A stretch of DNA of 64,000 bases from Bacillota bacterium (GCA_021850485.1 JAJZLY010000008.1:113305-177304); one strand, 5' to 3'. Positions 6,899 through 53,429 are shown, counted from the first letter of the stretch. Numbers and translations: made by a program. The notes: generated by a model from the sequence alone, not told the origin.

Positions 6899-7158
6899 CT
6901 GTCGGGTCCGCTTTGGCGCAAGCCGGTGCGGATGGTGACGACTAGGGCGACCGCCATGCCACCCAAAAGCCCGACCACGGTCAGGATATAGCCGGTGCCA
7001 AGGCGCTGGTCCAGCCAGCGGCCCACAAACAGCCCGCCGACCAGGGCCACGGCCCAGGTCACACCCAGCGACATGCCGCTTGCGCCCAAGCCGCCACCAG
7101 CCGGTCTAGACTTGAAAGCCCCCACCTCCTCAGCTTGGGAGGGTCGTCGCCAGATCAA
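6895..7158 (-). CDS. AtpZ/AtpI-family small membrane protein
   Basis: G.F.GRWLD..LGT motif of atp-operon gene 1 proteins. Confidence 0.8.
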   Translation of the reverse strand: MIWRRPSQAEEVGAFKSRPAGGGLGASGMSLGVTWAVALVGGLFVGRWLDQRLGTGYILTVVGLLGGMAVALVVTIRTGLRQSGPDR

Positions 7159-8303
7159 TTCTGGGGTAGCAATCCGGCTATGGCGGGCGAATAGGGAGCA
7201 GGCGGCGCATCGGTCAAGCCCATGGTATGGGCCAGCCCGGCGACCACCCGGCTGGCCGCCCGACCGTCGCCGTAGGGGTTGATGGCGCTCGCCATCTGCT
7301 GGTAGCGGACAGGGTCGGTGAGGAGCACCTGCACGGCCTGGCGCACCTCTTGCCGGCTCGGATCAACCCGCCACACGGTGCCGGCAGCTACTGCCTCTGG
7401 CCGCTCGGTACGCCGACGCACCAGCACCACTGGCACACCCAGCGCCGGAGCCTCTTCCTGGGCGCCTCCGGAGTCAGTGACCAATAAGGTGGCAGACTCC
7501 AGCAGGGAGATCCACTGGGGGTAGCCCGGCGGTTCGATCATCTGCACGCCGCTTCGCCCAGCGAAGGCCGCCGCCAGTGGAGCCTGGACGTTGGGATTGG
7601 GATGGACCGAGATCACCATGCGCAGCCCCGGTCGACTGGACAGCACCTCGGCCAAGCCCGCAAAGACCTCAGCCAATGGCTCGCCGAAGTTCTCCCGGCG
7701 ATGGCACTCCACCACCACCAGAGGTCGATCCGGTGCGCCCTGCCTGCGCCGGGCGATGGTCAACAAGGTATCAATCGCTGTATTGCCGGTGACATAGATG
7801 TGTTGGTCGGCCACGCCTTCCTTGAGCAGGTTCACCCGGGCCTGGGCCGTGGGGGCGAAGTGGGCCTGGGCCAGCTGCGCCACCAGCCGTCGGTTGGCTT
7901 CCTCTGGGAACGGATTGCTGAGGTCTCCGGTGCGTAGACCAGCCTCCACATGCCCGACTGGGATCTGGCGGTAGAAGGCAGCCAGTGCCCCCACCAACGT
8001 GGTCGAGGTGTCACCGTGGACTAGCAGGGCGTCCGGACATTCTGTGGCAAGTGCCTGGTCCAGTCCGGCCAGGGCGCGCACGGCCAACTCGGCCAGGCTC
8101 TGATCCGGCAACATCACATCCAGGTCGACGTCCGGGCTGAGCTGGAAGTGGTCGAGCACCTGATCTAGAAGGGTGCGGTGCTGGCCGGTGGCGATCAAGC
8201 GCACGGCGAAGCGGTGATCCGCCTTCAGGGCAAGCACCACCGGCACCATCTTGACGGCTTCTGGCCGAGTGCCGATCACCACGGCAACCTTCAGCGCCTT
8301 CAC
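7155..8303 (-). CDS. wecB: UDP-N-acetylglucosamine 2-epimerase (non-hydrolysing)
   Basis: GTRPEAVKM, HVEAGLRT, TDSGGAQEE, NPYGDG. Confidence 0.96.
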   Translation of the reverse strand: MKALKVAVVIGTRPEAVKMVPVVLALKADHRFAVRLIATGQHRTLLDQVLDHFQLSPDVDLDVMLPDQSLAELAVRALAGLDQALATECPDALLVHGDTSTTLVGALAAFYRQIPVGHVEAGLRTGDLSNPFPEEANRRLVAQLAQAHFAPTAQARVNLLKEGVADQHIYVTGNTAIDTLLTIARRRQGAPDRPLVVVECHRRENFGEPLAEVFAGLAEVLSSRPGLRMVISVHPNPNVQAPLAAAFAGRSGVQMIEPPGYPQWISLLESATLLVTDSGGAQEEAPALGVPVVLVRRRTERPEAVAAGTVWRVDPSRQEVRQAVQVLLTDPVRYQQMASAINPYGDGRAASRVVAGLAHTMGLTDAPPAPYSPAIAGLLPQN

Positions 8304-9382
8304 GGATTCAGCTCTTGCGGTCGGTCGGCCGGCGCTTCCTCACTCGGCGTCTGGTGGGGTGCTTCGGGCATGGTGAACAGGCCCCAGCGCCTGGCCATCA
8401 ATCCGGTGGCCACAATCACCAAAAGACCGGTGCCTAAGATCAGCTTCGATGGGAAGCGCACCACCAGCACCGCCAGAGCGCCAAACAGAGCGGTGATCAG
8501 ATACAGGCTGATCACCGCCCGGCGCTGGCCGAAGCCGCGCCCGAGCAGGCGGTGGTGGATATGGTCGCGGTCCGCTTGGCCAATAGGCTGGCCCAGCCGG
8601 ACCCGGCGGACGATCGCAAAGCCGGTATCGAAAATGGGCAGCGCCAAAGCGATCAGCGGGGCTGCCAGGGTGAGGGCAGTGGTGTCCTTGACTGACCCGA
8701 TCACCGCAACCGCGGCCAGAGCAAAGCCCAGCAGCCCGGAGCCGACGTCGCCCATGAAGATCTTGGCTGGCCAGAAATTGTAGATCAAAAACGCCCCAGC
8801 CGCCCCCACCACGGCCAGAGCGATCACCGCCACGGCCGCCTCCTGGCGGATCATCGCCACCATGGTCATGGCCCCAGCCACGATCACGGCGATCCCGCTG
8901 GCCAGACCATCCAAACCGTCGATCAGATTGACGATGTTGATCACCGCCACCACCCAGACCACGGTCAACGGGATGCCCAACCAGCCCAGCTGCACACCGG
9001 CGCCAAAGGCCACAAACGGGTTTGTGAGCAAAGAGACGGCTCCGCCCAAGCCGGCAAACACTGCGCCCGCCACCAGTTGGCCTACGAGCTTGAGCTTCCA
9101 GCTCAGCCCCCAGATGTCGTCGATCAGGCCCACTGCCACGATCACCAATCCACCGGCGAAAAAACCGCCGAGCGGCGTACCGAGCGGGATCGCCAACAGA
9201 GCCGACGTGCCCAAGATGGCGATCGCCATCGGCACGCCGCCCAAAGTTGGCACCGGCTGCGGATGGATGTGCCGGCCGCCGGGAGCCTTCAATAATCCCC
9301 AGCGCCGGCTGAGCACGGCCATGATCGGTGTTGCCACCACAGCGACCACAAAGCTGAGGCCAAAGGCCTCGGCCAGAATCAT
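8300..9382 (-). CDS. tagO: Undecaprenyl-phosphate GlcNAc-1-phosphate transferase (TagO/WecA family)
   Basis: GLIDD, NLIDGLDGLA, IFMGDVG, DRDHIHH; multiple TM segments. Confidence 0.92.
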   Translation of the reverse strand: MILAEAFGLSFVVAVVATPIMAVLSRRWGLLKAPGGRHIHPQPVPTLGGVPMAIAILGTSALLAIPLGTPLGGFFAGGLVIVAVGLIDDIWGLSWKLKLVGQLVAGAVFAGLGGAVSLLTNPFVAFGAGVQLGWLGIPLTVVWVVAVINIVNLIDGLDGLASGIAVIVAGAMTMVAMIRQEAAVAVIALAVVGAAGAFLIYNFWPAKIFMGDVGSGLLGFALAAVAVIGSVKDTTALTLAAPLIALALPIFDTGFAIVRRVRLGQPIGQADRDHIHHRLLGRGFGQRRAVISLYLITALFGALAVLVVRFPSKLILGTGLLVIVATGLMARRWGLFTMPEAPHQTPSEEAPADRPQELNP

Positions 9383-18722: not shown

Positions 18723-19130
18723 TTACTCCGGAGCAGCTGCGCCTGCCGCCAGCAGATGGCGGTCGAAGGAAAAAACTCTCCGTTGCGCCAGTGCGGCTAT
18801 CAGCAGGGCGTCAACCCAGTCCACAGTCGTGCCGGCATAGATCTGCAACGCCTGCAGCACACCCGGCAGATCATCGATCTCAATGCCGGTCATGGTCAGA
18901 AACTGACTGAGGACACGGGTGATGTCAGTTCTGGCCAGGCCCAGCCCATGGGGTGAAGCGGCGACGTAGACCACCTCGGCCAAAATGGCTGGATGGACCT
19001 GGACGCGCAACTCGCCCAGTTGCGCCCGTTCGAACAACGCCTCAGCCGCCCGGGCTTGTCCTTCCGGACGGCCGTCCAAGAAGCGCAGGATCACATTGGC
19101 GTCCATTAAGCAGACCTCAGCTGTCTTCAC
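18723..19130 (-). CDS. PIN-domain (VapC) toxin
   Basis: DANVILR...LAEVVY...DWVDA...SFD PIN acidic residues; overlaps the upstream antitoxin. Confidence 0.88.
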   Translation of the reverse strand: MKTAEVCLMDANVILRFLDGRPEGQARAAEALFERAQLGELRVQVHPAILAEVVYVAASPHGLGLARTDITRVLSQFLTMTGIEIDDLPGVLQALQIYAGTTVDWVDALLIAALAQRRVFSFDRHLLAAGAAAPE

Positions 19131-19383
19131 GCAGGCTCTCCCTGTAGGCATCGGCCAGTTCTCGCTGGCGGGTCTGACGCAGCGCATCCAAGCTCGGCTG
19201 CGCCAGCGCAGACTGAAACGCGCCTCTCAGCTGCGATGGTGTCATCGACGGAACCGCGACCAGGTGTACCGACTGTGCCGTCAGGTCAAACCCGATGCGG
19301 TCTCCGGGCAAAACCCCCAGCGCCTCTCGCACCGCCTTCGGAATGTTGACTTGGCCGTTGGCGCTAACCTTGGCAGTGATCAT
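19117..19383 (-). CDS. AbrB/MazE/SpoVT-family antitoxin
   Basis: KVSANGQVNIPKAVREALGVLPGD. Confidence 0.9.
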   Translation of the reverse strand: MITAKVSANGQVNIPKAVREALGVLPGDRIGFDLTAQSVHLVAVPSMTPSQLRGAFQSALAQPSLDALRQTRQRELADAYRESLREDS

Positions 19384-19572
19384 CCGTGGCGTGCCTCCCC
19401 GCTCTTTATCCTACTGACTATACTTTATTCTCTTTGCAGAACTTTGTGTAGGGCAGACCGTCTTGCGGCCGGCGACGCGCCGAACAAAACCCGGCCATGC
19501 GGGCCCGGTGGGGGCGCCGGAGTGCGGGTCCAGGCGCATCAAGCGCAGACAGGCACCACCCAGGGCCGAGGG

Positions 19573-19749
19573 TCAGCCGAGCAACTGATTGGGCGTCAGG
19601 ATGCGGGCGATTTCGTCGTCGATCAGATTGATCTTGCGATACGCCTCGTTGCGGTCATTGGGTTTGAGCTCAGCTGCTCGCCGGCGCAGAGTCTCCTTCT
19701 TCCGCTCCAACTCTGCCACCCGAGCCTGAATGTCTAGCGGAAAGTTCAT
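19573..19749 (-). CDS. Small charged coiled-coil protein (58 aa)
   Basis: GGAGG RBS before ATG 19749; MNFPLDIQARVAELERKKETLRRR... Confidence 0.6.
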   Translation of the reverse strand: MNFPLDIQARVAELERKKETLRRRAAELKPNDRNEAYRKINLIDDEIARILTPNQLLG

Positions 19750-19829
19750 CGCTCTGCCTCCCTGGCGTTCGTTTGCGGTGCCATCGTGTTGAGTCCACCT
19801 TAGACTGCCGAAGCGCTTGAGACAAGGCG

Positions 19830-20663
19830 TCACTTGCCTTGCTCGAGAGCCAGGGCTGCTGCCTGCGCGTGCGGGTCCGCCACCGGCGACAGCACGCCGG
19901 TCAATTCCGCTGACCAGGCTCTAGCCACGTCGGCTGGCACCACCAGCCACTGGTCGCCGCTCGTGAAGTGCAAGACGGCGCCTGGCACCACCTCGGCGCT
20001 CACGGCCGGACCCTCGCCCCACAGCCGCACCTCTGCGATCAAGGTGCTCCAAGGCAACGTGCCCGTGGTGTTGGCCCACACGCTTTCGGCGAAAAGCGGT
20101 GCCTTCAGCCATTGGCCGGCACTGCCCACCTGCGCCAAAAGCGCCACCGTGCTGGCCACGGCGGCGGAACTGCCGGATCCCGCTGCCACCTGCCAGCTGG
20201 CTACCACCTGGGCACCGCTCTCGGCCGTGGTGCCGACGCGCACGCCGCCCAACTGGTCGATCTCGGACGCCAGCGCCGGCAGAGGCATCACGGCGACCGG
20301 CACAGATGGCAGGCGGACTAATGCAGCGACCGTCTCGGCCAGCAGGCGGGTGCCACCGAAGGTATAGGCTCGGCCGATCTGCTGTGCCCCATAGCCGCTG
20401 AGCGTGACCCGGGTATCCGGCGGGATGATCAGCACGCTGGTGCGCCCGGCCTGATGGTTGACCAGCAACAAGACGGCGGCCACCTGGACCACGCCACTTG
20501 GCCCTGGCGCCGGCAGCGTGCCGACCACCAGCACGGTGGGCGGCAGTGCAACTTTGGGCAGGTGGCTCAGTACAATCAGGCCGCGGTGGATGGCAAACCC
20601 GGCGATCAGCATGATCACGGTCCCGATCAAAAGCCCCCGGCCCTGGCGGCGGCGCCGGCTCAT
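19830..20663 (-). CDS. LytR-CpsA-Psr (LCP)-like protein with degenerate active site
   Basis: Basic N-terminus plus TM; VLVVG, SVLIIPPDTRV, AYTFGG..L..TV..L, IDQLGGV.V resemble LCP; ATGA overlap with the upstream gene. Confidence 0.75.
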   Translation of the reverse strand: MSRRRRQGRGLLIGTVIMLIAGFAIHRGLIVLSHLPKVALPPTVLVVGTLPAPGPSGVVQVAAVLLLVNHQAGRTSVLIIPPDTRVTLSGYGAQQIGRAYTFGGTRLLAETVAALVRLPSVPVAVMPLPALASEIDQLGGVRVGTTAESGAQVVASWQVAAGSGSSAAVASTVALLAQVGSAGQWLKAPLFAESVWANTTGTLPWSTLIAEVRLWGEGPAVSAEVVPGAVLHFTSGDQWLVVPADVARAWSAELTGVLSPVADPHAQAAALALEQGK

Positions 20664-21208
20664 CGCTCCACCGCAGCCAAGGCTGCGAGCGCAGCACCAA
20701 GATCCGGGCCCACACCCACCTCGGCAAGCGTGCACTGGGCCACGGTGGTGGTGATCAGATCCAGTCGAGACAAGGGCGCCACCACCGCCAGGCGAAGCGG
20801 TACCACCTCTTGACCGTATTCCCGGTAGCGCCACCACTTGTGGCGGAGCACGGTGCCAGACTCTGTGCCCAGGTCCACCTCCACAGCCACTGGCATACCG
20901 CCCAGGTGGAGCAAGGCGTCCGGGTCGAGACTACGCGCACCGCCCGCTGGCGACCGATAGGGCAGGCGTGGCTCCACCGTCACCGCTTCGGGCGGGTGGC
21001 CGAGCGCCACCATGTCGACCAGCAGCTGGGCCACAGCCAGCTGATGCGCGAGCAGCCGGGGCAGGGGACCGCGACACCACAGCCGATGCGATCTCCGATA
21101 GGTGAAGCCAGCCCTCTTCAGGTCCTGGCAAGAGGGGGCCCACCGCCCCAATTTGCGCCTTTGGCCAGCGCTGATCAGCCCCAGTGCGGCCACTGCCTCA
21201 GGCACCAC
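20660..21208 (-). CDS. Replication-relaxation (Replic_Relax) family nuclease
   Basis: LAHQLAVAQ, PDALL and VEVDLGTES..L..K..RY motifs. Confidence 0.78.
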   Translation of the reverse strand: MVPEAVAALGLISAGQRRKLGRWAPSCQDLKRAGFTYRRSHRLWCRGPLPRLLAHQLAVAQLLVDMVALGHPPEAVTVEPRLPYRSPAGGARSLDPDALLHLGGMPVAVEVDLGTESGTVLRHKWWRYREYGQEVVPLRLAVVAPLSRLDLITTTVAQCTLAEVGVGPDLGAALAALAAVER

Positions 21209-22736
21209 GGGGTGTCGGCAACCTCACCAGCCGGGGGTCGAGCAGGCGGCCAGCCAATACCACCTGGACCAAGGCCAACCCACGCGGCAGTTGATGCACC
21301 AGTTCGGGCCGGAATTTGGGCTCCATGACCAGGGTGCGGCCTTTCACCAAGCCAGCGGCGTCCTCGGTTACCCGCACCCCCATCTTGGCTCCCAGCGTGT
21401 CCTTCAGGCGGAGCAGGTCCTCTCCCGACACGCCGCCCAACAGCACCCGGTTGCGACAGTTGGCCAGCACCGACTGGGTGAGGGATTCCGGCAATTGGCC
21501 CAAGTTCTGATGCGCCAGCACAGCGCCTACCTGATCCTGGCGGGCCAGCTCGAGGAACTGGGCGAAGGAGCTGGTGGCGAAGGTCTGAAACTCGTCCACA
21601 TACAAAAAGTGTGGCGCCCCCTTGGCCCGACCCAAGACAGCTTGCTGCAATCTGGCCAGGATATAGGCGCCGAACAGCCTGCCGGCATCACCCAGCTGGC
21701 CGGCTGGCAAGGACACCACCAGCACCTCGCCGGCGGCCAAGATGCGATCCAACGGCAAGGCTTCGCTGCCGCTCATCATCCGGCTGACCTCTGGGTGATC
21801 GGCCAGCGACTGCAAGGCGTTTCTCAGGCCCAAGGTGTACTCCCGTTGCGCCTTCACCGTCCACTGGGCGTACTCGCGCCGAAAGTAGGCCTTGACCGCC
21901 GGATCGGCGCAGCGCACCAGGACCTGACGGCGGACGTCTTCTTCCGCCAAAAACGCCTGCAAATCCGCCAAACCGGCGTGTTCATCAGGCACTGCCTTCA
22001 CGGCCAGCACCGCCTGGCGCAGCAAGGTGCGACCCAGCGTGCGAAAGAAGCTGTCCGTGCTGGGAAAGAGCTTGTCCACAGCTTCCACCATCGCCCCAGC
22101 GGCCTGGTCGGGCTCGCCGGCCAGCGGGTTGAATGTGTCGGCAAAGCCCGGGCCCAGGGCGTAGACCGCTCTCCCCAGCCGCCTGGCTTCGGCTGCAGTT
22201 GCGGCCGCCAGGTCGCCCTTCGGGTCGATCACGGTGATCCCCACTGGCCGTCTCAGGTCCTGGCGGATGAGCGGTTGCAGCACACTTGCGGTCTTGCCCG
22301 AGCCGGTCGGTCCCAGGACATGCAGGTGCAGATAGCGGTCGTCCCGGGAAATCAGCACGCGGCTGCGCATCCAGCCACTGGTGCCAATCACCGCCGGATA
22401 GTCTTGATCCACTACGAAGCGGCTGCGCACCGACTGCCAGATCCACAGGGCCACCGAAACCTCGGCCAAAAAAGAGGCCGCAAGCCACCAGCCACCGGCG
22501 GCCTGTACCCCGGACAGCACCGGGACCACGACCCCGCCGAATAAGAACAAGATGCCAAGTCCATAGCGCAGGTGGAGCGAGCGGGCCAGTGGTGAACGCC
22601 AAAAACCGACCACCGCCACGGTGCCGAAGATCAGTGCCAGCTGCCACGGCCAGGGCTGGCTGTACGCCAAGATCAAGTTGACGAATCCCAGTCCGATCGC
22701 CCACGGGCCGATGAGGCGGGCCGTCAGGCTCTTAAT
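21198..22736 (-). CDS. VirD4/TraD/TrwB-like membrane ATPase (type IV coupling-protein family)
   Basis: N-terminal TMs, Walker A GPTGSGKT, IDPKGDL, Walker B FLYVDEFQ, LAHQNLGQL; reading frame is open back to 22748 and the start codon is anomalous. Confidence 0.88.
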   Translation of the reverse strand: MKSLTARLIGPWAIGLGFVNLILAYSQPWPWQLALIFGTVAVVGFWRSPLARSLHLRYGLGILFLFGGVVVPVLSGVQAAGGWWLAASFLAEVSVALWIWQSVRSRFVVDQDYPAVIGTSGWMRSRVLISRDDRYLHLHVLGPTGSGKTASVLQPLIRQDLRRPVGITVIDPKGDLAAATAAEARRLGRAVYALGPGFADTFNPLAGEPDQAAGAMVEAVDKLFPSTDSFFRTLGRTLLRQAVLAVKAVPDEHAGLADLQAFLAEEDVRRQVLVRCADPAVKAYFRREYAQWTVKAQREYTLGLRNALQSLADHPEVSRMMSGSEALPLDRILAAGEVLVVSLPAGQLGDAGRLFGAYILARLQQAVLGRAKGAPHFLYVDEFQTFATSSFAQFLELARQDQVGAVLAHQNLGQLPESLTQSVLANCRNRVLLGGVSGEDLLRLKDTLGAKMGVRVTEDAAGLVKGRTLVMEPKFRPELVHQLPRGLALVQVVLAGRLLDPRLVRLPTPRGA

Positions 22737-22748
22737 GCATGTTCCCTC

Positions 22749-24998
22749 CTAGTGCCGGATCTTCACCCGGGCGTCTTGGGCTGGTTCCAAGACGCTGGCA
22801 CCGGCTGCCGCCAGGGCGTCGCGCTCCCAGGGATGACAGGTCAGCACCACCACCTGGCGATGGGCAGAAATCTCCGCCAGTGCCGTGACCAAACGGGCGT
22901 GGCGCTCGGGGTCGAGGTGGGCGGCGGGCTCGTCGACGATCAGGGGCACGGTTTCATCGGCAAACACCAGTTCGCAAAGGGCCAGCCGCAGGCTCAGGTA
23001 GGCCAGGTCCTGGGTGCCTTGGGACAACTCCTCAGGCGCGCGCAGGGCGATTTCTCCGGGCCCCGAGATGCGGGGATCGCCACTGTCTTGCAGTGTGGCC
23101 TGATTGTACCGCCCGCCGCTCAGCCGCTCCAGCCACCTGCCCATCCGGGCCGCCAGCTCCGGTCCCATCTGGCGGTGAAACTCGGCGCCGACCTCACTCA
23201 GCACCAGTTGGGCCAGGGCGAGGGCCTGGCGTTCGTGCTGCCGGCGGCCGACCAGGGCATCTGCCCGCCGAAAGGCGGCCTCCAGCTCAGGCAACTCGGT
23301 CGGTTCGCCCAACCGCCGGCGCAGGGCTTGGGCCAGGGCCTGACTGGTCACCTGACTGGCCTGCAGGGCGGCCTCCAGGCGCTGCACCTCGCGGTCTTGG
23401 GCGGCCAGGTCTCCCGCCTCGGCCGTGTCTGCCCCGTCTTGCCAGGCGACCAGCGTCGACTCAGGCAGATCGAGCAGCCGATTGTGGGCCTGCCTGGCGG
23501 CCACCAGCTGTTGTTGCAGTTCGCCCAAGCGGTTGCGTTTGGCCGCCAGTTCGCCGAGGTCTGTGCCCTCGCCCAGTCCCGCCATCAGGCGGGCCAGATC
23601 CGCCTCGGTTCGATTCGCCTGCTCGAGTCGAGTCTGGGCCGACGCCTCCAGCCGATCTGCCTCTGCCGCCCACTCCTGCTGCGCCAGCTGCTGTTGGCGC
23701 CAGCTTGCCCAGGCGGCTTCTACGCGCCGCACCAGCTCCAAGCTCAGCACTGACTCGCCAGCCTCTTGGGCCAGGGCAGACCGCCGGCTGGAGTCGCCGT
23801 GGGCGGCGCGCTTCAGCCGCAGCGCCAAGACGCAAGCTGCTATTGCAGCCACGAGCGCTACGCCGCCAGCCGCTGGCTGACCCGTGGCGAACAGGGCGGC
23901 CGCTGCTACCACCAGCACACCACTCGCCAGCCAAGGCCACCAGGTGACCTTTTGGCTCTGAACCGGCTGGCTCTTGTTCATCTCCTGCCACGCCCGGTCC
24001 ACCCAGTCGGCGGCGATGGTCGGCGCTGGGCTAGCGGCCGCCGCCTGCGCACGCAGGGCCTCAGCGCGCTCCATCTCCTGGTGGGCGCTCGTTTGCGCGG
24101 CGGTGATCGCTTCTTTGAGGCCGCGTGCCGCCTGCGGGTCGACCTGGGCCAAGGCCGCCAGCGGCTTGATCTCTTGCTCCAACCGCTCGATCTGGGCGCT
24201 GCTTTCGGCAAGTTCGGCGATCCGGCGCTGCGCCGTCCAGCGCCGGATGGCCGCCTGCTGGCGTCTCGCCTGCGCCAGGGCCTCGGTCTGCGCCAGAGCT
24301 GCCTGCTCTGCAGCCTGCTGGGCCGCTTGGTCGACCAGCGTGCTCTGGCGGCGCTCGGTCAGCACCCGGATTTCATCCTCCAGTCGCTGGCGGCTGGCGA
24401 TGGCCTGACCGATCTTGGTCTGGCGGGCCTGGTCGGTCTTTCCGACCTCGCCCAGCTGCGTCTCGATCAGCTCCACCGCCCGTTTGACCGACACCGTCTC
24501 ATCGCCACTGCTGGTCAGGTTCGAAGCGCGTTCGTGCAGGGCTTGTGTGTCGATGGCGCCGGTGGGCAGGTCGGAGATCAGGACGCTGGCCCGAAACATC
24601 TGGGCTGAGATCCCCGCCAGCAACTCCAGGGCGACCGCCGCTCGCTCGCCGTTTGGCTGCAGATCCTGGCCGGTGGCCAGGTCGGTGACCCTCAGATCGT
24701 CCTTGCGGCTGGCCAGGCGGCGGACTATGGCCAGACGCTGGCCGCTGGCCAAGACCACGTCCACTGCCACCGTGAAGTCTCCGCCTGCCCACGGCTTCAG
24801 ACGGCTCACTTCAGGCCGGGCCCTGAGTCGGCTTCCATTCGCTTCCTGGGCACCGTACAGGGCGGCAAAAATCACCTCTGCCAGTGTGCTCTTGCCGCTC
24901 TCGTTGGCTCCGTGCACCACGCAAAGATGCTCCGGCAGCGTCAACTCCAGCGTCTCGAACAGCCCGAAGCCACGGGCCCGCACCTTTTCAATAATCAC
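22749..24998 (-). CDS. YhaN/SbcC(Rad50)-like ABC ATPase with coiled coil and central TM hairpin
   Basis: GANESGKST, LSQGT signature, LIVDEP, LTCH; GTG start at 24998 after a GGAGG RBS. Confidence 0.88.
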   Translation of the reverse strand: MIIEKVRARGFGLFETLELTLPEHLCVVHGANESGKSTLAEVIFAALYGAQEANGSRLRARPEVSRLKPWAGGDFTVAVDVVLASGQRLAIVRRLASRKDDLRVTDLATGQDLQPNGERAAVALELLAGISAQMFRASVLISDLPTGAIDTQALHERASNLTSSGDETVSVKRAVELIETQLGEVGKTDQARQTKIGQAIASRQRLEDEIRVLTERRQSTLVDQAAQQAAEQAALAQTEALAQARRQQAAIRRWTAQRRIAELAESSAQIERLEQEIKPLAALAQVDPQAARGLKEAITAAQTSAHQEMERAEALRAQAAAASPAPTIAADWVDRAWQEMNKSQPVQSQKVTWWPWLASGVLVVAAAALFATGQPAAGGVALVAAIAACVLALRLKRAAHGDSSRRSALAQEAGESVLSLELVRRVEAAWASWRQQQLAQQEWAAEADRLEASAQTRLEQANRTEADLARLMAGLGEGTDLGELAAKRNRLGELQQQLVAARQAHNRLLDLPESTLVAWQDGADTAEAGDLAAQDREVQRLEAALQASQVTSQALAQALRRRLGEPTELPELEAAFRRADALVGRRQHERQALALAQLVLSEVGAEFHRQMGPELAARMGRWLERLSGGRYNQATLQDSGDPRISGPGEIALRAPEELSQGTQDLAYLSLRLALCELVFADETVPLIVDEPAAHLDPERHARLVTALAEISAHRQVVVLTCHPWERDALAAAGASVLEPAQDARVKIRH

Positions 24999-26070
24999 TG
25001 GCCCGCCTCCCCTCCAGTGCGGCCAGACCGATGCGCAAGGCATCCGCCAGCAGCTGGCGTTGGGCCTCGTCTGCCTGCTCCATCTGAGCCATGATCCGGC
25101 CAGCGAAGCGCCCGCGCACCGTGAACTGATCGGTGAGATCGACCGGTGGCAGCCGCAGGTCGCGCACCTCGCAGTGCAGCCAGCCGCTGGCGAGCTCTCC
25201 TTGCCAGCGTCCGACCGGCCACCCGTCTTGGGCTGCCGGGCCGACCAGTTCCACCCGCAGCAAAGTCGTCTCCGGGTCCCACTCCCGTATGCGCACCGCG
25301 AGTTCGTCCAGGGCCTGCTGGTCGGTGCGAGCCGCCAGATCGACCGTCATGGTTTCGTACCGGCAGCGGGCCAGTGGTAATGATCGCCACTGCTTTTGCC
25401 GGGTCTTCAGGTCCAGATCCACGACCAGCGCACCGTGCACACCGGGCTCGTCGAAGCCAAGCGGCTCCAGCGACCCAGCATAGGCACCGAGGTCAGCGAT
25501 CGGCATCGGTTTATGGATGTGTCCGACCGCTGCCCAGATGGCGCCCAATTCAGCGAGCCGGGTGCGGGTGAAGGGCGCATAGTCGCTGTCTCCCGGCAAC
25601 TTGTCACAGTCGCCGTGAAAGACCACGATGTCCGGCCTTTGGCCTGAGGGGAAATCTGCCAGCGGGTCGGAAGGTTCGTGTTCGGCCAGAAAGCCGCGGC
25701 CCCAGATGGCGGCATCAGCCACCCTGTGACTTTGCCAGGCGCCGCCAAAAACCACCACGTTGTCCGGTCGCTCCAGCTTCCAGAAGCTGGCTGCCTCCCA
25801 GGGGTCGTGGTTGCCAGGGGCGATCAACACGGGCACAGGAGTGAGCGAGGCCAGCAGGTCGAGCACCCACTTCACCGTGCCAAGCCGGGTGCTGCGCCGC
25901 TCGAACACGTCACCGGGCAGCAACAAGGCATCCGCCTGTAGATCGCGCACCAACTCGATCAACCGCTGGAAGGTTGCGATCTGGTCCTGGCGCCGGCGTT
26001 TGCCCAACTCGTCGTCCAAGGTGGCAAAGGGACTATCCAGATGCATGTCGGAGGCCTGCACAAGGCGCAT
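24988..26070 (-). CDS. YhaO/SbcD(Mre11)-like metallophosphoesterase nuclease
   Basis: SDMHLD, GDVFE, GNHD, FHG, GHIH motifs. Confidence 0.92.
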   Translation of the reverse strand: MRLVQASDMHLDSPFATLDDELGKRRRQDQIATFQRLIELVRDLQADALLLPGDVFERRSTRLGTVKWVLDLLASLTPVPVLIAPGNHDPWEAASFWKLERPDNVVVFGGAWQSHRVADAAIWGRGFLAEHEPSDPLADFPSGQRPDIVVFHGDCDKLPGDSDYAPFTRTRLAELGAIWAAVGHIHKPMPIADLGAYAGSLEPLGFDEPGVHGALVVDLDLKTRQKQWRSLPLARCRYETMTVDLAARTDQQALDELAVRIREWDPETTLLRVELVGPAAQDGWPVGRWQGELASGWLHCEVRDLRLPPVDLTDQFTVRGRFAGRIMAQMEQADEAQRQLLADALRIGLAALEGRRASDY

Positions 26071-26232
26071 CGTATGGGCCCTCGCCCGTCCCTCCGTTTC
26101 GCTCAGGTCAAGTCCGCTGATCTTTCCCCAAGCCAGAGGACGCTACCTGCCGGGCTTGACTCGCCAGAGTGGCTGGCCCACGCTGAAGGCGAATGAGAGC
26201 CTGGCCACGGGCCAGCAGAGGAGGACCGGGCG

Positions 26233-26622
26233 TTGTTCATCCCGATGCTGAAGGCGAAACTGCATCGACTGACCGTGACTCAGGCAGACCTCAACTATGT
26301 GGGCAGTATCACGCTTGACCAGAAGCTTCTGGACGCCTCGGGTATCCGGCCCTATGAGCTCGTGACCATCACCAGCGTCGAAAACGGCACCTTCTGGCAG
26401 ACGTACGTCATCGCCGGCCCCCGCGGGTCGGGCACGGTTTGCCTGAACGGATCGTCTGCCCGCTGGTTCGCGCCTGGCGACACCATCATCGTCATGGCCT
26501 ACAACCAGTACAGTGAAGACGATCTGAAGCACTACCAACCAAAAGTGGTGTACGTGGACGAAAAAAACCAGGTCACCCGAGTCAGTGTCGACGAGACGCC
26601 GTTCACGGTGTTTAAGCCCTAG
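26233..26622 (+). CDS. panD: Aspartate 1-decarboxylase-like pyruvoyl enzyme (PanD family, atypical)
   Basis: K9, H11, G24-S25 cleavage site, T57-Y58, CLNG present; Arg54 replaced by Phe. Confidence 0.85.
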   Translation: MFIPMLKAKLHRLTVTQADLNYVGSITLDQKLLDASGIRPYELVTITSVENGTFWQTYVIAGPRGSGTVCLNGSSARWFAPGDTIIVMAYNQYSEDDLKHYQPKVVYVDEKNQVTRVSVDETPFTVFKP

Positions 26623-26773
26623 GCTCGGCACAGATCAGCCATCAGCGCAAGTCGCATGGTTTGTCCGATGGCACGACGGCAGCGGCGGACCGCCTTTCTG
26701 CGGCACAGAGAGCTGGGTCGCGATGACCCTGTGCCGCTGGGCTCAACGTAGCTCAGTCGCTGACGGCGTCGAG

Positions 26774-27208
26774 CTAGCCCCGTGAGTGATACAGATCGAA
26801 AAAGGCTCTCGGGCTGAGCACCGACACCGCTCCACATAGAGCCACCGGAAAGTGTCGGAGGTTCCCGGTGACCAGCACTGCCGGAGGGGTGACTGCGGCT
26901 GCAACCTCGAGAAACTTGCAGTCTGCAAGGTCCGGGAGCCGCCGGGCCAAGGGCCGGGCAGCTACGGTCAGGGCGTTGTACTCCAATGCCTCCAGCACGA
27001 CGCCAACCAGTGTCTGATCGAAGCGGAATGCCGGCCTACCAAGCACGTCACGGTATTCCAAGAGGATGCGGGCATCCACAGCAATTTGCTGACGGCCGCT
27101 CAGGATGGACCCCAGCAGCATGGCGGGCATGCTATCGGCCTTGAGCAATGCAGACACGATCACGTTGGTGTCAACGACGATGAAGGGGCTCGGCGCCAGA
27201 GACTTCAT
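26774..27208 (-). CDS. PIN-family toxin (PIN_3 type)
   Basis: VVDTNVIVSAL, EY, DLADCKFLE, LVTGNLRHFP. Confidence 0.9.
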   Translation of the reverse strand: MKSLAPSPFIVVDTNVIVSALLKADSMPAMLLGSILSGRQQIAVDARILLEYRDVLGRPAFRFDQTLVGVVLEALEYNALTVAARPLARRLPDLADCKFLEVAAAVTPPAVLVTGNLRHFPVALCGAVSVLSPRAFFDLYHSRG

Positions 27209-27495
27209 TCGGTAATCGGTCGCTCGCGCCGCGCCGCAGCAATCTCGGACAATACCTGCTGATCGTTCATGCGATCCGCGCCCTGGCTCGCACTTCGCGT
27301 CTGCAGTTCAACCATGGCCAAGACCGCACGCGCCTGGCGCTGGGCACGTAGCATCAGGTCAAGCGACTCTGGGGTGACCGCTGTCAGGAGCGCCACCGGC
27401 GTCCCACCTGAGGTGATAACGGCGTCAGCATTGCCCAGGTCTTTCAGAATCTGAGCCGATCGACTCCTCAGGTCACGGATGGTGACAAATCGCAC
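27205..27495 (-). CDS. Phd/YefM-family antitoxin
   Basis: VTIRDLR...VITSGGTPVALL; 4-nt overlap with the toxin. Confidence 0.88.
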   Translation of the reverse strand: MRFVTIRDLRSRSAQILKDLGNADAVITSGGTPVALLTAVTPESLDLMLRAQRQARAVLAMVELQTRSASQGADRMNDQQVLSEIAAARRERPITE

Positions 27496-27759
27496 ACGAA
27501 CACCCCCTGGCATACATTTCGCGACATTATCGTAGCACACTTCTGTTCCGTATCGGCCCGCTTACGCTCCACGTCAGGTTGGCACGAGCGCTACCAAGCG
27601 CGGCGCTGGACCCTAACGACGGCCGACGGCACGCTGCTCATCGAACATGACTCGAAGGAACGTGAAGGAACCCACGGCCCAACTTTTCGAGTCTTAGTTC
27701 ATGATAGAGATTGCACGACCCCTTCACCGTGTCCTCAGTAGAAAGGTCGGTTACACGAA

Positions 27760-29787
27760 ATGAGACCCTGGCAGTGGCGACGATGGCTGAGGTGGTCGGG
27801 CTTGCTGCTGATTTCAGCAGCACTGACCGGTTGTGGGCTTTGGCCGGCGGCCAAGCCGAAGACGCCGCCACCGGCGTCCCCACAGATGACCCAATCGGCC
27901 AAGCCGCCCACGGTGGCAGGTGCCTGGCTGAAAGTCCCGCCCGGCACGGTGCACCCCGGTGAACGGATCACGGTCACCGGATACATGCCCGGTGCCACGC
28001 CGCCTTCCGCCAGCGCAGCGGCCTATAGCAGCGCCACCTTGTGCTTTGGCGGCTGCTCGGCTGGGCTCTTGGAGCAGGCAGTACCGATCCACTGGTCCGC
28101 CAGCATCAAAGATCAGTTCACCATGACTCTGTACGTACCGGCCACCGCCTGGCTCACACCCAGCGGGACGCAGCCACTGGAAGACGGCACCTATCGGCTG
28201 TCTGCCCAGTGCGTGATCAGCGCTCCCGGCTGTGGCACCCGCCCTGGTCAGGTCAGCACCGTGGTGCACCTGGCCTCTGTCAGCTACAAGCCGTGTCCGA
28301 AGACAGCCTGTGGTGAGATCTCCCTGTCGGCCACCAGCGCCGCCCCTGGCAACCTGGTCCACTTCCATGGCTGGGCTCCCCTGAATGAGATCATCGGTAC
28401 GCCCTTTCCCTACAACCTGGTGATGGAGTCGGGCAGCCCGGGCTCACGCTTCGTTGTCACCGTCCCATCCAAGGGTAGCGGTGCCCAGAGCCCAGGCACC
28501 CAGGTGGCATCTGTCCAGCAGGCCCTTAACGGCACGTTTTCTGGTTCCCTGCGCATACCGGCTGTCTTGTCCGGTAGCCAGACCGTGACACCTGGCAGCT
28601 ACACGCTGGCTCTCCAGGCCTCTTTCACTGCAGGCAGCTTCACCGACGTGACCCTTGCCCCGACCGCACTGCAGGTCAGCGCCAATCAGACCTGGGCCAG
28701 CCTCGGCCCGCTGGCGCCGATCGCCGCCACCTGGAGCGCAAACTTGTTTCCTCCGTCTGTGTCAGCGCTGGCCCAGACCTCTAGTCAAATCGTGGCCTGC
28801 GTGAACCAGCAGATTTTGCTCTCCACGGATGGTGGCCAGCACTGGGCGCAGATACCGGATACCGCGGTGATCTCCCTGGCGGCCAAAACGGCGTATCCCC
28901 TGGCGATTGTGCCCGCTGGGACCAATACGGCACCATGCACGTCGGTGCAACTCGACCCTACCCACCCCGACACCATCTACGCCACCTTCGCTGCCGAATC
29001 AGCCCAGTATAAGAGCATTCCGCCCATCTTCACGGTTGGCTATGTGACCACCAATTTGGGTCAGACCTGGCGGGCCGTGCCACCACCCAGCGGCTACAGC
29101 CTGGGCGACTCCGGCGGCTTTCAGGCGGACGGTGCCAAGACCCTGGCCCTGTTCGATAGTTCCAACACCCAAAGCGGCCTGCCGGTCGCTCAGGTGCAAA
29201 CCACAGACGGCGGGCTGATCTGGACTTCCGGTCAGGCCACCTGCCCGGCGCTCGGGCCGTGCTTACGCTTCGGAGCCGCCCCCGCCCAGACCGGCGGCAT
29301 GGGCGTGGGCTACGCCCAGTCCCTGCAATGGTCGGCCAACGGCGGTAGCACCTGGCAGTCTCCGGCCTGGCCGTCCCAGGTCATCTTGAACCAAGGGCCA
29401 AGCCAGCTGGTCGCCCTCAGTTCCAGCCGGGCGCTGTTGCTCTCTGGGGCTTCCCAGTACCCCGTGCGGCTGACCACAGACGGCGGGCGACTGTGGCAAA
29501 ACATCGCCCTTCCGCCGGTTCCAAACGCCCAAAATGGTGCTGCCGGCCTGAGCGACGCTGTGATCTTGCCCAACGGCTCGCTGCTGGCCCAAGATCCGAA
29601 CACGCAGTCCTGGATCTTGTTGCCGGCGGGTCAGAGTGCTTGGTGTACACTCACCGGCCTGCCGTCGGGCCTCGTGTCCCAGCCGACCGTGGTCGGCAGC
29701 CAGCTCTGGTATGTCTCTGAACCGGCAAACGGCGGCCAACAGGCCATCGGTAGCACACCGCTCAGTGCAGTACACTGCGGCGGCTAG
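27760..29787 (+). CDS. Large lipoprotein with Cys-paired N-terminal domain and Asp-box (BNR) beta-propeller
   Basis: Lipobox LTGC; five Asp-box-like repeats (STDGGQHW, TTNLGQTW, TTDGGLIW, SANGGSTW, TTDGGRLW). Confidence 0.8.
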   Translation: MRPWQWRRWLRWSGLLLISAALTGCGLWPAAKPKTPPPASPQMTQSAKPPTVAGAWLKVPPGTVHPGERITVTGYMPGATPPSASAAAYSSATLCFGGCSAGLLEQAVPIHWSASIKDQFTMTLYVPATAWLTPSGTQPLEDGTYRLSAQCVISAPGCGTRPGQVSTVVHLASVSYKPCPKTACGEISLSATSAAPGNLVHFHGWAPLNEIIGTPFPYNLVMESGSPGSRFVVTVPSKGSGAQSPGTQVASVQQALNGTFSGSLRIPAVLSGSQTVTPGSYTLALQASFTAGSFTDVTLAPTALQVSANQTWASLGPLAPIAATWSANLFPPSVSALAQTSSQIVACVNQQILLSTDGGQHWAQIPDTAVISLAAKTAYPLAIVPAGTNTAPCTSVQLDPTHPDTIYATFAAESAQYKSIPPIFTVGYVTTNLGQTWRAVPPPSGYSLGDSGGFQADGAKTLALFDSSNTQSGLPVAQVQTTDGGLIWTSGQATCPALGPCLRFGAAPAQTGGMGVGYAQSLQWSANGGSTWQSPAWPSQVILNQGPSQLVALSSSRALLLSGASQYPVRLTTDGGRLWQNIALPPVPNAQNGAAGLSDAVILPNGSLLAQDPNTQSWILLPAGQSAWCTLTGLPSGLVSQPTVVGSQLWYVSEPANGGQQAIGSTPLSAVHCGG

Positions 29788-29883: not shown

Positions 29884-30309
29884 TCAGCGGGGAACTGGGC
29901 TGACGGCAACCACCTCGAGCAGGCCAGACAAGCCCGTGAAGTCTTGTGGATTCCTGGTGAACAGCGGGAGTTCCGCCGCCAGAGCGGTGGCGGCGATCAG
30001 CAGATCAAACGCCCGGCGACCAGGAACGGTCCCGCCAGCCGCAGCCACTGCCGCGTACATGCGGGCGTATGCTCTGGCCACATCAGCATCTACCGGCAGC
30101 GGGTCGAAGCTGGCCTCCATCCGCTGCAGCCGGTCCTGGCGCCGGGCCCGCTCCTCAGAACTGTGCGCTGCATGCGGTCCCGCTGCCAATTCAGCCATGG
30201 TGACAGCCGACACGGCCAGTTCCCGAGGCAAGTCGACCGGGTCCAGGTGCTCCAAGTCGATGACGACCGACGTGTCGACCAGCCCGCGCTCGTGGCGCTC
30301 ACTATCCAC
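29884..30309 (-). CDS. VapC toxin
   Basis: LVDTSVVID, TMAEL, FDLLIAATA, TRNPQDF. Confidence 0.92.
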   Translation of the reverse strand: MDSERHERGLVDTSVVIDLEHLDPVDLPRELAVSAVTMAELAAGPHAAHSSEERARRQDRLQRMEASFDPLPVDADVARAYARMYAAVAAAGGTVPGRRAFDLLIAATALAAELPLFTRNPQDFTGLSGLLEVVAVSPVPR

Positions 30310-30556
30310 GGGGCTGAAGGTCCTGGTCGAGATACCTGTCCACATCTAGGCGAAACGTCGTCCAGTCAATCGTCGGCGCGCCCTTAAAGGCGGCCACAAC
30401 CACTTCGGCACTGACGAAGGATCGGCTGCGTATGGGCACTAATTCCCCGACCCCAACTCCGTTGCGGGTGACGATGAACGTCTCGCCGCGGTCGAGGGCG
30501 CGCATGACATCCCCACTGTTGTTGCGCAGTTCGCGCTGGGTCAGTTGTCTCTTCAT
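30302..30556 (-). CDS. Phd/YefM-family (VapB-type) antitoxin
   Basis: QRELRNNSGDVMR...VTRNG..VGELVP. Confidence 0.92.
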   Translation of the reverse strand: MKRQLTQRELRNNSGDVMRALDRGETFIVTRNGVGVGELVPIRSRSFVSAEVVVAAFKGAPTIDWTTFRLDVDRYLDQDLQPRG

Positions 30557-52200: not shown

Positions 52201-53429
52201 TCGAGGACATCTTGCGCTATGTGATGGGCACCTTGAGCCTGAAGGATGCTCCGGTGATCAGTCGCGACAACCTGAAAACCCGCGGGCTGGACGAGGACGA
52301 GGTACGCAAGATCGAGACTGCTCTGCCCAGCGTGTTCGAATTTGACCAGGCCTTTGCCGGCTGGGTGCTCGGCCCTGACAGCATGCAGCGGCTGAATTTG
52401 CCGCAGACCGCTTCTGGCCAAGACGTCCTTCTGGCCCTCGGATACAAGCAGGCAGAGATCGCTCAGGCAGCGGTCGTCGTCTGCGGCCAGATGACGCTGG
52501 AGGGCGCCCCCCACCTGAAGGAAGAAGATCTGGCCGTGTTCGACTGTGCCAATCCCTGCGGCAAGATCGGTACCCGCTACATCGCCCCCATGGGCCACGT
52601 CCGGATGATGGGTGCGGTCCAGCCGTTTTTGTCCGGCGGCATCTCCAAGACCATCAACATGCCCAACGATGCCACCATTGAGGATGTGCAAACCGCCTAC
52701 CTGGAGAGCTGGAAATTAGGTCTGAAGGCGATCGCCATCTACCGGGACGGTTCTAAGCTGTCCCAGCCGCTGAACTCTCGTGGCACCGACAACGGCGATG
52801 GCGACGAGGCAGCACAAGAGGGTACGCCGATGCCGCGGCGCCGGCCCCTGCCGGCCAAGCGCCACGGCTTCACCCAAGAGGCCAGGGTCGGTGGGCACAA
52901 GGTGTACCTGCGCACCGGCGAATACCAAGACGGCACCTTGGGCGAGATCTTCATCGACATGCACAAGGAGGGCGCTGCCTTCCGCAGTCTGATCAACTGC
53001 TTCGCCATCGCCGTCTCCAAGGGACTGCAATACGGCGTGCCGCTGAGTGAGTTCGTCGACACCTTCATCTTCACCCGATTCGAGCCCCAAGGCATCGTAG
53101 AGGGCCATCCCAACGTCAAGATGTCTACCTCGGTGGTCGACTACATCTTCCGAGTTCTGGGCATGGAGTATCTGGGCCGCACCGATTTCGTCCAGGTCAA
53201 GCCGATCGACGACGAGGGGACGGCCGCTGCCCAGCCGATCGCCATCCAGAGCGCTCCGGTGAAACGGGTGGCCGCTGAACCGACGGTGTCACCACGAAAC
53301 GCCCTCGACGAGCAACTCTCCCAGATGCTCGGCGATGCCCCCATCTGCGAGATCTGCGGACACATCACGATTCGTAACGGCGCCTGCTACAAGTGCCTGA
53401 ACTGCGGGAACACCCTGGGCTGCTCTTAG
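49221..53429 (+). CDS. nrdJ: Class II (adenosylcobalamin-dependent) ribonucleotide reductase, intein-containing
   Basis: [16 protein letters not shown]|CSE catalytic loop split by the intein, LAPTGTI, C-terminal CEICG..CLNCG. Confidence 0.95.
50427..51440 (+). mobile_element. Intein (338 aa) with LAGLIDADG domain at the RNR catalytic-Cys site
   Basis: Block A CVTGDT, block B LTADH, block F VFDLT, C-terminal HN followed by extein Cys; removal restores NASNP-CSEY. Confidence 0.95.

Follow-up and report, generated by a model that had tools for sequence, protein, structure and literature searches.

A probably domesticated coupling-ATPase and MOBC-type relaxase gene pair in the chromosomes of a Bacillota clade, joined to SbcEF-like genes in one genus

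Results

A packed minus-strand gene string on a core chromosome

We analysed a 64,000-nucleotide (nt) stretch of a Bacillota chromosome (G000:C2:113305-177304, hereafter the window, with coordinates counted from its start), in which six minus-strand open reading frames (ORFs) at 19573-26070 encode an SbcD-like nuclease, an SbcC-like ATPase, a VirD4-type coupling ATPase, a Replic_Relax nuclease (RelRx), an LCP-fold membrane protein and a protein of 58 amino acids (aa) (Table 1). The source genome, G000, comprises 1.61 Mb in 33 contigs with ~65% G+C and is 97% complete; most of the genomes with which we compared it are metagenome bins. An earlier note on this DNA had reported these six ORFs, and they are present at the positions it gave, as are all the junctions it described: the SbcD and SbcC genes overlap by 11 nt, SbcC abuts VirD4 in frame, the VirD4 and RelRx genes again overlap by 11 nt, and an ATGA is common to the end of RelRx and the start of the LCP gene. 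The genes thus form a tightly packed string that is probably co-translated, and all six are probably expressed from one transcript.

The window is core chromosome, holding the ATP synthase operon, Sua5, PrmC, RF1, GlpX, Tal, MurJ, FdhD, riboflavin genes and a ribonucleotide reductase, along with PanD, which is divergent from sbcD. Of its ORFs, 67 were scanned against Pfam, and none encodes an integrase, Rep, VirB4 or wall hydrolase, bearing out the earlier note on this point. A scan of 19000-26700 gave no promoter-like site (0.4 expected from shuffled sequences) and four terminator-like sites (4.3 expected). Two candidate features were rejected: a hairpin followed by UUUUGUU (~19485-19531) after the small ORF, considered as a terminator, folds no better than shuffles (z 1.41), and a 162-aa minus-strand ORF at 26143-26631 is the shadow of panD (+, 26233-26622, Asp_decarbox E 5.6e-46).

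Table 1. Features of the gene string, with coordinates in the window
Feature	Coordinates	Strand	Matches and remarks
SbcD/YhaO (SbcF)-like Mre11-family nuclease, 360 aa	24988-26070	-	Metallophos E 2.9e-13
SbcC/YhaN (SbcE)-like SMC-type ATPase, central transmembrane hairpin, 749 aa, GTG start	22749-24998	-	AAA_23, SMC_N, AAA_27
VirD4/TrwB-type coupling ATPase (type IV coupling protein, T4CP), ~510 aa, membrane-anchored	21198-22736, frame open from 22748	-	T4SS-DNA_transf E 6.3e-9, TraG-D_C, TrwB_AAD_bind
Replic_Relax (RelRx; MOBC-type, PD-(D/E)XK) nuclease, 182 aa, short putative N-terminal DNA-binding region	20660-21208	-	PF13814 E 3.5e-12
LCP-fold membrane protein, pseudoenzyme, 277 aa	19830-20663	-	PF03816 partial, E 5e-7, 30.4 bits
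58-aa ORF, no known family	19573-19749	-	80 nt past LCP stop, GGGAGG ahead of start
SbcC stop/VirD4 start junction	22734-22760	-	TAG overlapped by AGGAGG, ATT 8 nt downstream, SbcC frame

VirD4 and RelRx resemble a coupling protein and a MOBC relaxase

The Walker A (GPTGSGKT142) and Walker B (FLYVDEF377) motifs of VirD4 are invariant in 16 relatives. Its AlphaFold2 (AF2) model, with a predicted local distance difference test (pLDDT) value of 84.6, has N-terminal helices at residues 2-26, 31-47, 57-74 and 82-107, and these helices, together with hydrophobic segments in the sequence, correspond to a predicted N-terminal transmembrane anchor. In Foldseek searches, the best matches to this model were Cag-beta (8dol) and TrwB (1e9s), with template-modelling (TM) scores, normalised to the target, of 0.66-0.71 over 402-429 columns, the TrwB structure so aligned being TrwB-deltaN70. 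DotL was also aligned, and DndH-C and HerA ranked lower. By its motifs and modelled fold, VirD4 is a T4CP of the TrwB/Cag-beta type.

RelRx scored 47.2 bits against PF13814 (cut-off 25.3), a match that covers profile positions 90-176 of 191 only, and its residues H55, D97, E110, D112 and K124 are invariant in 17 members of the clade. The AF2 model (pLDDT 94.3) gave VIA Z-scores of 8.1-9.4 to the PD-(D/E)XK proteins AF1548, Bax1, BstEII, XisH and NucS over residues ~52-182; Foldseek matches were weak (best E 2.6e-3), and nothing closely related to it has a solved structure. No MOBC structure was among the structural matches, so the comparison of RelRx stands at the level of fold only. Ahead of the core lie 47 residues that form short helices and strands in the model, and the relatives in family f4 are ~50 residues longer.

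PF13814 is described as the MOBC relaxase family, to which CloDF13 MobC and pAD1 TraX belong and whose members are PD-(D/E)XK enzymes that carry a winged helix at the N-terminus, and, in the accounts given of streptococcal integrative mobilisable elements (IMEs), the MOBC relaxase is the one accompanied by a VirD4-type coupling protein (PMC5357655, PMC12857230, PMC3424549, PMC3357382). Relaxase genes are also said there to adjoin a coupling-ATPase gene as a rule (PMC3357382). In line with this, 28 of the 74 downstream ORFs that we extracted from 80 loci of T4CP relatives were Replic_Relax genes, with serine recombinases (9/74) and NlpC/P60 hydrolases (6/74) following; a narrow first RelRx profile, which had matched at 3 of the 80 loci, was replaced by the Pfam scan and a broader profile. 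VirD4 and RelRx are therefore by origin a mobilisation pair of coupling protein and MOBC relaxase, representing the half of a mobilisable element that processes DNA.

The pair is inherited as chromosomal genes across ten families

The T4CP gene is single-copy in G000, and a single-sequence search found it in all 15 genomes of the order; PF13814 was matched in 14 of these, the miss being G011, which is 82% complete. Class-wide, a profile built from 16 family members matched 62 of 210 genomes at E <= 1e-60. Fifty-seven of the 210 carry the short T4CP family, as assigned by a score of at least 416 bits or by a partial match at a contig end, and they fall into ten families (f1-f4, f10, f22, f36, f47, f50 and f51); five further genomes (G049, G101, G191, G207 and G208) have a longer type of T4CP that scored 272-299 bits. 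In a tree of 19 copies and four conventional T4CPs, the 18 short copies formed one group, with a support of 99 in the Shimodaira-Hasegawa-like approximate likelihood-ratio test (SH-aLRT), and the longer copy from G049 grouped with a conventional T4CP (SH-aLRT 100). Among the 18 sampled genomes, the short copies branch in a pattern mirrored by RpoB in a tree of 58 genomes, from which G012, G013 and G043 were excluded (central RpoB stretch missing or partial); most of our trees are quick searches on a single marker. A grouping with a complete integrative conjugative element elsewhere, which the earlier note had named as a refutation of its proposal, was not seen.

RelRx lies directly downstream of the T4CP gene in 25 of the 29 genomes examined (f1 3/3, f2 1/1, f3 0/1, f4 7/7, f10 9/9, f22 0/1, f47 0/2, f50 4/4 and f51 1/1). 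The location on the chromosome is shared as well: in G007 and G008, virD4 stands 14-21 kb from orthologues of MurJ and Sua5 on the same contig, and the same genes flank virD4 in the window. Identities between families are 43% for VirD4, 53-55% for MurJ and 41-46% for Sua5.

All five of the larger genes are under purifying selection. Comparing G000 with G002 by the Nei-Gojobori method, we obtained ratios of nonsynonymous to synonymous substitution (dN/dS) of 0.18 for SbcD, 0.28 for SbcC, 0.13 for VirD4, 0.22 for RelRx and 0.25 for the LCP protein, values that are approximate because dS is near saturation (0.64-0.97); three chromosomal genes beyond SbcD gave 0.08-0.27. The last three genes of the five therefore do not evolve neutrally; neutral evolution of these genes was what the earlier note had named as speaking against its proposal.

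Machinery for conjugation was sought in the same genomes. VirB4 (PF03135) had no match in G000 (one genome, 97% complete), where the only AAA_10 match was a sub-threshold P-loop match of 23 bits on a frame that also holds an FtsK match, and one of the 15 genomes of the order exceeded the AAA_10 cut-off, marginally. The sole resolvase match of G000 is a 194-aa frame on another contig. The features of an integrative mobilisable or conjugative element are likewise missing, in that the 67 window ORFs scanned include no integrase and the T4CP tree is congruent with RpoB over 18 genomes. The clade is one of uncultured heat-loving Bacillota, and in it the pair consists of conserved chromosomal genes; word searches of open-access text found no description of a vertically inherited chromosomal pair of T4CP and MOBC relaxase.

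The two-gene architecture is that of known MOBC and VirD4 modules (PMC5357655; CloDF13 mobC, PMC3357382), and the pair could on that account still be a mobilisation module, one that nicks a chromosomal oriT-like site (oriT, origin of transfer) and couples the DNA with visiting conjugative elements' type IV secretion system (T4SS), so that DNA of the chromosome, or the module itself, would be mobilised in trans, in the way known for CloDF13 and the streptococcal IMEs. Second matches to both T4CP and Replic_Relax in G004, and to Replic_Relax in G010, would fit such a role. We nevertheless consider it decidedly improbable, since the window holds neither integrase nor excisionase, the chromosomal neighbourhood is the same in f1 and f4, and the tree follows the species tree, which would be unexpected of a selfish element across ten families; G000 has no VirB4, with the one marginal AAA_10 match among the 15 genomes of the order, and neither the cluster nor its flanks showed an array of oriT-like repeats, the region 19000-26700 containing just short two-copy repeats.

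The additional T4CP match in G004 is on a frame of ~1200 aa in contig C56, within 4 kb of the second Replic_Relax match, and the additional Replic_Relax match of G010 is on contig C127; these extra copies indicate that related mobile versions or elements probably circulate in the order.

SbcD and SbcC joined the pair in one genus

Upstream of the pair, SbcD (YhaO) has all five phosphoesterase motifs (DMH8, GDVF53, GNHD86, FHG151 and GHIH183), and SbcC (YhaN), the single gene of its type in G000, has Walker A (GANESGKS30), signature (SQGT659) and Walker B (LIVDE686) motifs and an AAA_27 match of 31.9 bits (cut-off 22). No CxxC hook was found in the SbcC sequence; a hydrophobic hairpin lies at residues ~351-393, a feature shared with the 1058-aa YhaN of G007 and G008.

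Queried with SbcC, strong matches were confined to the genus (G001 and G002), with weak head-domain matches to proteins of ~1060 aa in 7 of the 10 genomes of f4 and no match in G003 or G004. The ~1060-aa proteins of G007 and G008 are of YhaN type, with an AAA_27 match and a transmembrane hairpin at residues ~450-495, and a Metallophos (YhaO) gene of 434-438 aa precedes the 1058-aa YhaN; these yhaO-yhaN pairs lie on contigs other than that of virD4. In G007 the 1058-aa YhaN has a YhaO-like partner with which SbcD of the window shares 29% identity, and the window proteins share 29-31% identity with their f4 counterparts over the head domains. Each of the three genus genomes has the full order SbcD-SbcC-VirD4-RelRx-LCP-small ORF, which was seen in no further genome examined, and the genomes of the genus measure 1.5-1.6 Mb as compared with 2.0-3.5 Mb in the rest of the order. 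Because the linkage of SbcD/SbcC to VirD4 occurs in one genus only, it is a recent fusion rather than an inherited system. A gene order unique to this genome was one refutation that the earlier note had named for its proposal; in spirit it applies, the complete order being unique to the genus.

The junction itself is close. In all three genus genomes the T4CP frame continues that of SbcC straight after the stop codon (TAG in G000 and G002, TAA in G001), and G001 differs by 6 nt in frame, with two extra codons. A Shine-Dalgarno sequence, AGGAGG, lies over the SbcC stop, and the residues ahead of the first canonical start of VirD4 are conserved; that start is a TTG at 22676, with none for 24 codons past the junction. 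Probably VirD4 starts at the ATT at 22736, the position equivalent to that at which its relatives begin. The junction is overlapped in G000 and G002 by a mini-ORF of three codons (ATG/TTG CAT TAA), and this, with the missing canonical start, suggests either an ATT start or termination and reinitiation.

In archaea, one operon combines an Mre11-type nuclease, a Rad50-type ATPase, a HerA hexamer and a NurA nuclease. It was the model for the earlier note, which proposed a bacterial analogue of it, and the packed string, its presence in 3/3 genomes of the genus, the purifying selection and the core-chromosome setting all hold, but the SbcDC linkage is restricted to the genus, the ATPase is of TrwB/Cag-beta type and the nuclease is PD-(D/E)XK rather than NurA; the analogy thus has support in part only. 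Restricted to the genus, the proposal would be a six-gene, membrane-tethered machine for DNA-end processing and translocation, in which SbcEF and a second nuclease, together with a hexameric motor and a scaffold facing the wall, would work at the envelope in the manner of Mre11-Rad50-HerA-NurA. Several observations are consistent with such integration: the gene order with its overlapping or abutting junctions in 3/3 genomes, an in-frame SbcC/VirD4 junction kept across a 6-nt indel, purifying selection on all genes, and membrane segments in SbcC, VirD4 and the LCP protein. Moreover, B. subtilis SbcE/SbcF is described as an SMC-like protein without CxxC and with a hydrophobic central domain, encoded beside an SbcD-like gene, with roles in break repair and transformation and a location at the polar DNA-uptake machinery in competent cells (PMC2811018). 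We still regard the integrated machine as fairly unlikely. Its linkage is absent outside the genus, yhaON of f4 being on another contig and G003 and G004 giving no match to the window SbcC; the ATPase is TrwB-like, with HerA ranking lower, and the nuclease is a MOBC-family PD-(D/E)XK protein and not NurA; and a reduced genome (1.6 Mb against 2.0-3.5 Mb in the order) favours operon fusions without shared function.

As its own alternative, the earlier note had suggested a domesticated mobilisation module that landed behind yhaON. The domestication agrees with our results, but the order of events is the reverse, for the module is ancient and clade-wide and it was yhaON that joined the module.

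A degenerate LCP protein and a small ORF close the string

The PF03816 match of the window LCP protein covers profile positions 5-97 of 150. The N-terminal Asp and Arg residues of LCP proteins bind pyrophosphate and Mg and have a catalytic role. Aligned with TagU (6uf6), the LCP protein of G003 and the second LCP protein of the genome, the motifs GxDxR, RxD and PRD read GTLPA, VQVA and PPD in the window copy, so that the charged residues of three N-terminal motifs are replaced, and the 'dead LCP' of the earlier note appears to be an apt description. The G002 orthologue also lacks the charged residues of these motifs, and both proteins are without ~24 alignment columns of the second half. Elsewhere in G000 there is a canonical LCP protein, scoring 106 bits as against 32 bits for the window copy. 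The window protein is 27% identical to the LCP protein that follows virD4-relRx in G003 and 21% identical to its own paralogue; since it is closer to the G003 neighbour, the order virD4-relRx-LCP may predate the genus.

The 58-aa ORF is conserved, with 77% identity in G001 and 82% in G002 (partial, at a contig end), and was not found in any other locus compared. It had no match in Pfam, NCBIfam, PADLOC or PHROG, and an Atlas search gave nothing above chance level.

Near these genes, a UDP-GlcNAc 2-epimerase gene and a GT4 (TagO/WecA-like) gene (7155-9382, -) lie 10 kb from the dead LCP gene and MurJ 1.2 kb from it, so that wall-polymer genes are concentrated in the neighbourhood.

A possible but unlikely defence role, and other neighbours

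PADLOC assigned SbcC to mad3 (E 1.8e-21) and VirD4 to mad8 (E 1.1e-19), both components of MADS, HerA-SIR2 antiphage complexes are among the structural neighbours of the T4CP model, and three PIN-domain toxin genes flank the cluster, one paired with a MazE-type antitoxin gene. From such signs one could propose a defence system in which a membrane-anchored ATPase of the FtsK/HerA superfamily detects or catches DNA on its way in and then activates the PD-(D/E)XK nuclease or feeds it, as in HerA-nuclease and SMC-nuclease systems. We hold this to be very unlikely, because the cluster includes no methylase, kinase or specificity subunit, RelRx, LCP and SbcD had no PADLOC match, and the pair's T4CP occurs in ten families, in 57 genomes altogether, its tree matching the species tree (18 sampled). 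Defence islands are typically patchy in distribution, unlike the pair. Membership in MADS, an eight-gene operon with methylase, specificity subunit and kinase, was also rejected, the mad3 and mad8 matches being the only ones and the six genes including neither methylase nor kinase. The MADS profiles are described as built from HHpred alignments to PDB entries (bioRxiv 10.1101/2023.03.30.534895), and they are generic fold profiles for that reason.

The PIN-domain toxin genes are at 18723-19383, 26774-27540 and 29884-30556 (-), each with a small upstream partner; G001 shares the pair that lies at 18723-19383. A 675-aa ORF (27760-29787, +) had no Pfam, PADLOC or PHROG match; it is 69% identical in G002, with a dN/dS of 0.24. 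The 1402-aa ORF at 49221-53429 (+), considered as a tree marker and set aside for RpoB, is the B12-dependent ribonucleotide reductase; its match to a solved enzyme of 925 aa is split into three stretches, so that large insertions, possibly inteins, are probable.

Beyond the genus, virD4-relRx often adjoins minC (L022, L025 and L042, from f4 and a further Bacillota bin), and in f4 it is found near a large S-layer gene with SLH domains; MinC_C had no match in G000. Several of the f10 genomes are in one to three contigs.

Short T4CPs and ComEC were not found together in 210 genomes

A search for ComEC (PF03772) matched no genome of the order (0/15) and 131 of the 210 in the class. Across the 210, 57 genomes have the short T4CP without ComEC, 131 have ComEC without the short T4CP, none has both and 22 have neither, the last count being reached by subtraction for most rows; ComEC is therefore present in 131 of the 153 genomes that lack the short T4CP. 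DprA (PF02481) was likewise not found in any of the 15 genomes of the order, and was found in 36 of 61 relatives; G032 has it, as does G047 weakly. Fifteen T4CP-positive rows of the RpoB tree group together (SH-aLRT 90) and two more form a weakly placed pair, and a tree that unites all 17 has the higher likelihood (p-AU 0.67, approximately unbiased test). As one ancestral event can explain the pattern, the exclusion of ComEC and T4CP carries no statistical weight by itself.

The exact mutual exclusion in 210 genomes nonetheless gives rise to a further reading, in which the clade replaced the near-universal ComEC/DprA transformation by a channel-less device of coupling ATPase and MOBC nickase that would move chromosomal DNA out, in or between cells, with SbcEF serving in the genus as its end-processing unit and the dead LCP protein as its wall-side scaffold. 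We regard this reading as unlikely. Together, the SbcEF fusion, the clade-wide absence of ComEC and the absence of DprA in the order point towards either DNA repair or an unconventional exchange of DNA as the role of the pair.

Discussion

We consider it probable that the string is a composite operon, in which a domesticated nick-and-pump pair of coupling ATPase and MOBC relaxase, host genes throughout the clade, was secondarily joined to SbcEF in one genus. An ancestor of a large Bacillota clade would have captured the pair on its chromosome, and it would have been kept since then as a host gene pair. No secretion channel was found to go with it in the genomes tested, and there is no integrase close by. 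In the mechanism that we propose, the small PD-(D/E)XK protein would bind, nick or cut DNA and hand it, perhaps within a complex, to the membrane-anchored hexameric ATPase, which would thread it at the cytoplasmic membrane or through it. This genus alone, with its reduced genome of 1.6 Mb, has the pair fused downstream of the membrane-tethered double-strand-break nuclease SbcE/SbcF and upstream of the dead LCP protein and the 58-aa protein, and co-expression with SbcEF may be a secondary refinement at the level of the genus, by which DNA ends are trimmed or protected. By analogy with Streptomyces TraB, the most likely role would be export or cell-to-cell transfer of chromosomal DNA without a type IV secretion channel.

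Several observations weigh against the composite operon or parts of it. RelRx is apart from VirD4 in four of the 29 genomes (G004, G032, G112 and G114), the LCP gene adjoins the pair only in f1 and G003, and the near saturation of dS loosens the argument from selection. The junction of SbcC and VirD4 is unusually intimate, with the same frame, a Shine-Dalgarno sequence over the stop and conservation in 3/3 genomes despite a 6-nt indel, which argues that the SbcEF link is functional in the genus and not a mere accident of genome shrinkage. As for the direction of pumping, no channel through the wall was identified, and 'export' is thus a guess.

Coupling ATPases and relaxases are usually taken as markers of mobile elements, and here they behave as a core gene pair of a whole clade. 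Automatic 'mobilome' calls in these genomes would accordingly be mistaken, and there must be a host function for the pair. It also offers a clean, testable case of a relaxase-motor pair acting on its own.

Compared with the archaeal Mre11-Rad50-HerA-NurA operon, the window likewise combines in one string an Mre11-type nuclease, a Rad50-type ATPase, a hexameric ATPase of the FtsK/HerA superfamily and a further nuclease; the motor here is, however, TrwB-type and membrane-anchored, the second nuclease is PD-(D/E)XK, and the linkage is found in one genus. As with B. subtilis SbcE/SbcF, a Metallophos gene lies directly upstream of an SMC-like AAA_27 ATPase that lacks CxxC and has a hydrophobic centre. 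The window SbcC differs from the B. subtilis arrangement in that its gene is followed in frame by that of a T4CP, and from the 1058-aa YhaN of sister families in its length of 749 aa and an identity of ~30% over the head domains.

The pair itself most resembles CloDF13 MobC/MobB, pAD1 TraX and streptococcal IME_Class_8, for which a PF02534/PF10412 ATPase followed by PF13814 is described, in the same order and with tight coupling (PMC5357655, PMC12857230). It shares with such MOBC and VirD4 modules a relaxase with a PD-(D/E)XK core and conserved acidic and lysine residues, and an ATPase anchored at its N-terminus. Unlike them, the window pair is chromosomal, vertically inherited over ten families and without an integrase in the window, and no recognisable oriT repeats were found at the locus and no T4SS in G000; its ATPase is ~500 aa long as against ~700-750 aa in the nearest conventional T4CPs of Bacillota, and its relaxase has a short, putatively DNA-binding N-terminal region without a match to the first 90 positions of the Pfam model.

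Conjugation-derived genes outside conjugative elements, with a non-conjugative role proposed for them, have been described in Patescibacteria and in a phage (PMC12102498, PMC3357382). Patescibacteria have a relaxase-less chromosomal T4SS, which keeps VirB4 and channel parts and mostly lacks the relaxase (PMC12102498), and phage 0305phi8-36 has a 'DNA translocation operon' in which a MobC-like relaxase is found together with a coupling ATPase that has no membrane anchor (PMC3357382). In the window, by contrast, the half that is kept is the opposite of that in Patescibacteria, namely relaxase and T4CP, with no VirB4 found in G000, and the ATPase is membrane-anchored, unlike that of the phage. 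Streptomyces TraB is a single, plasmid-borne, membrane-associated FtsK-like hexamer that moves double-stranded DNA between cells without a T4SS or a relaxase. Likened by description only, TraB is a precedent for channel-independent transfer in monoderm bacteria.

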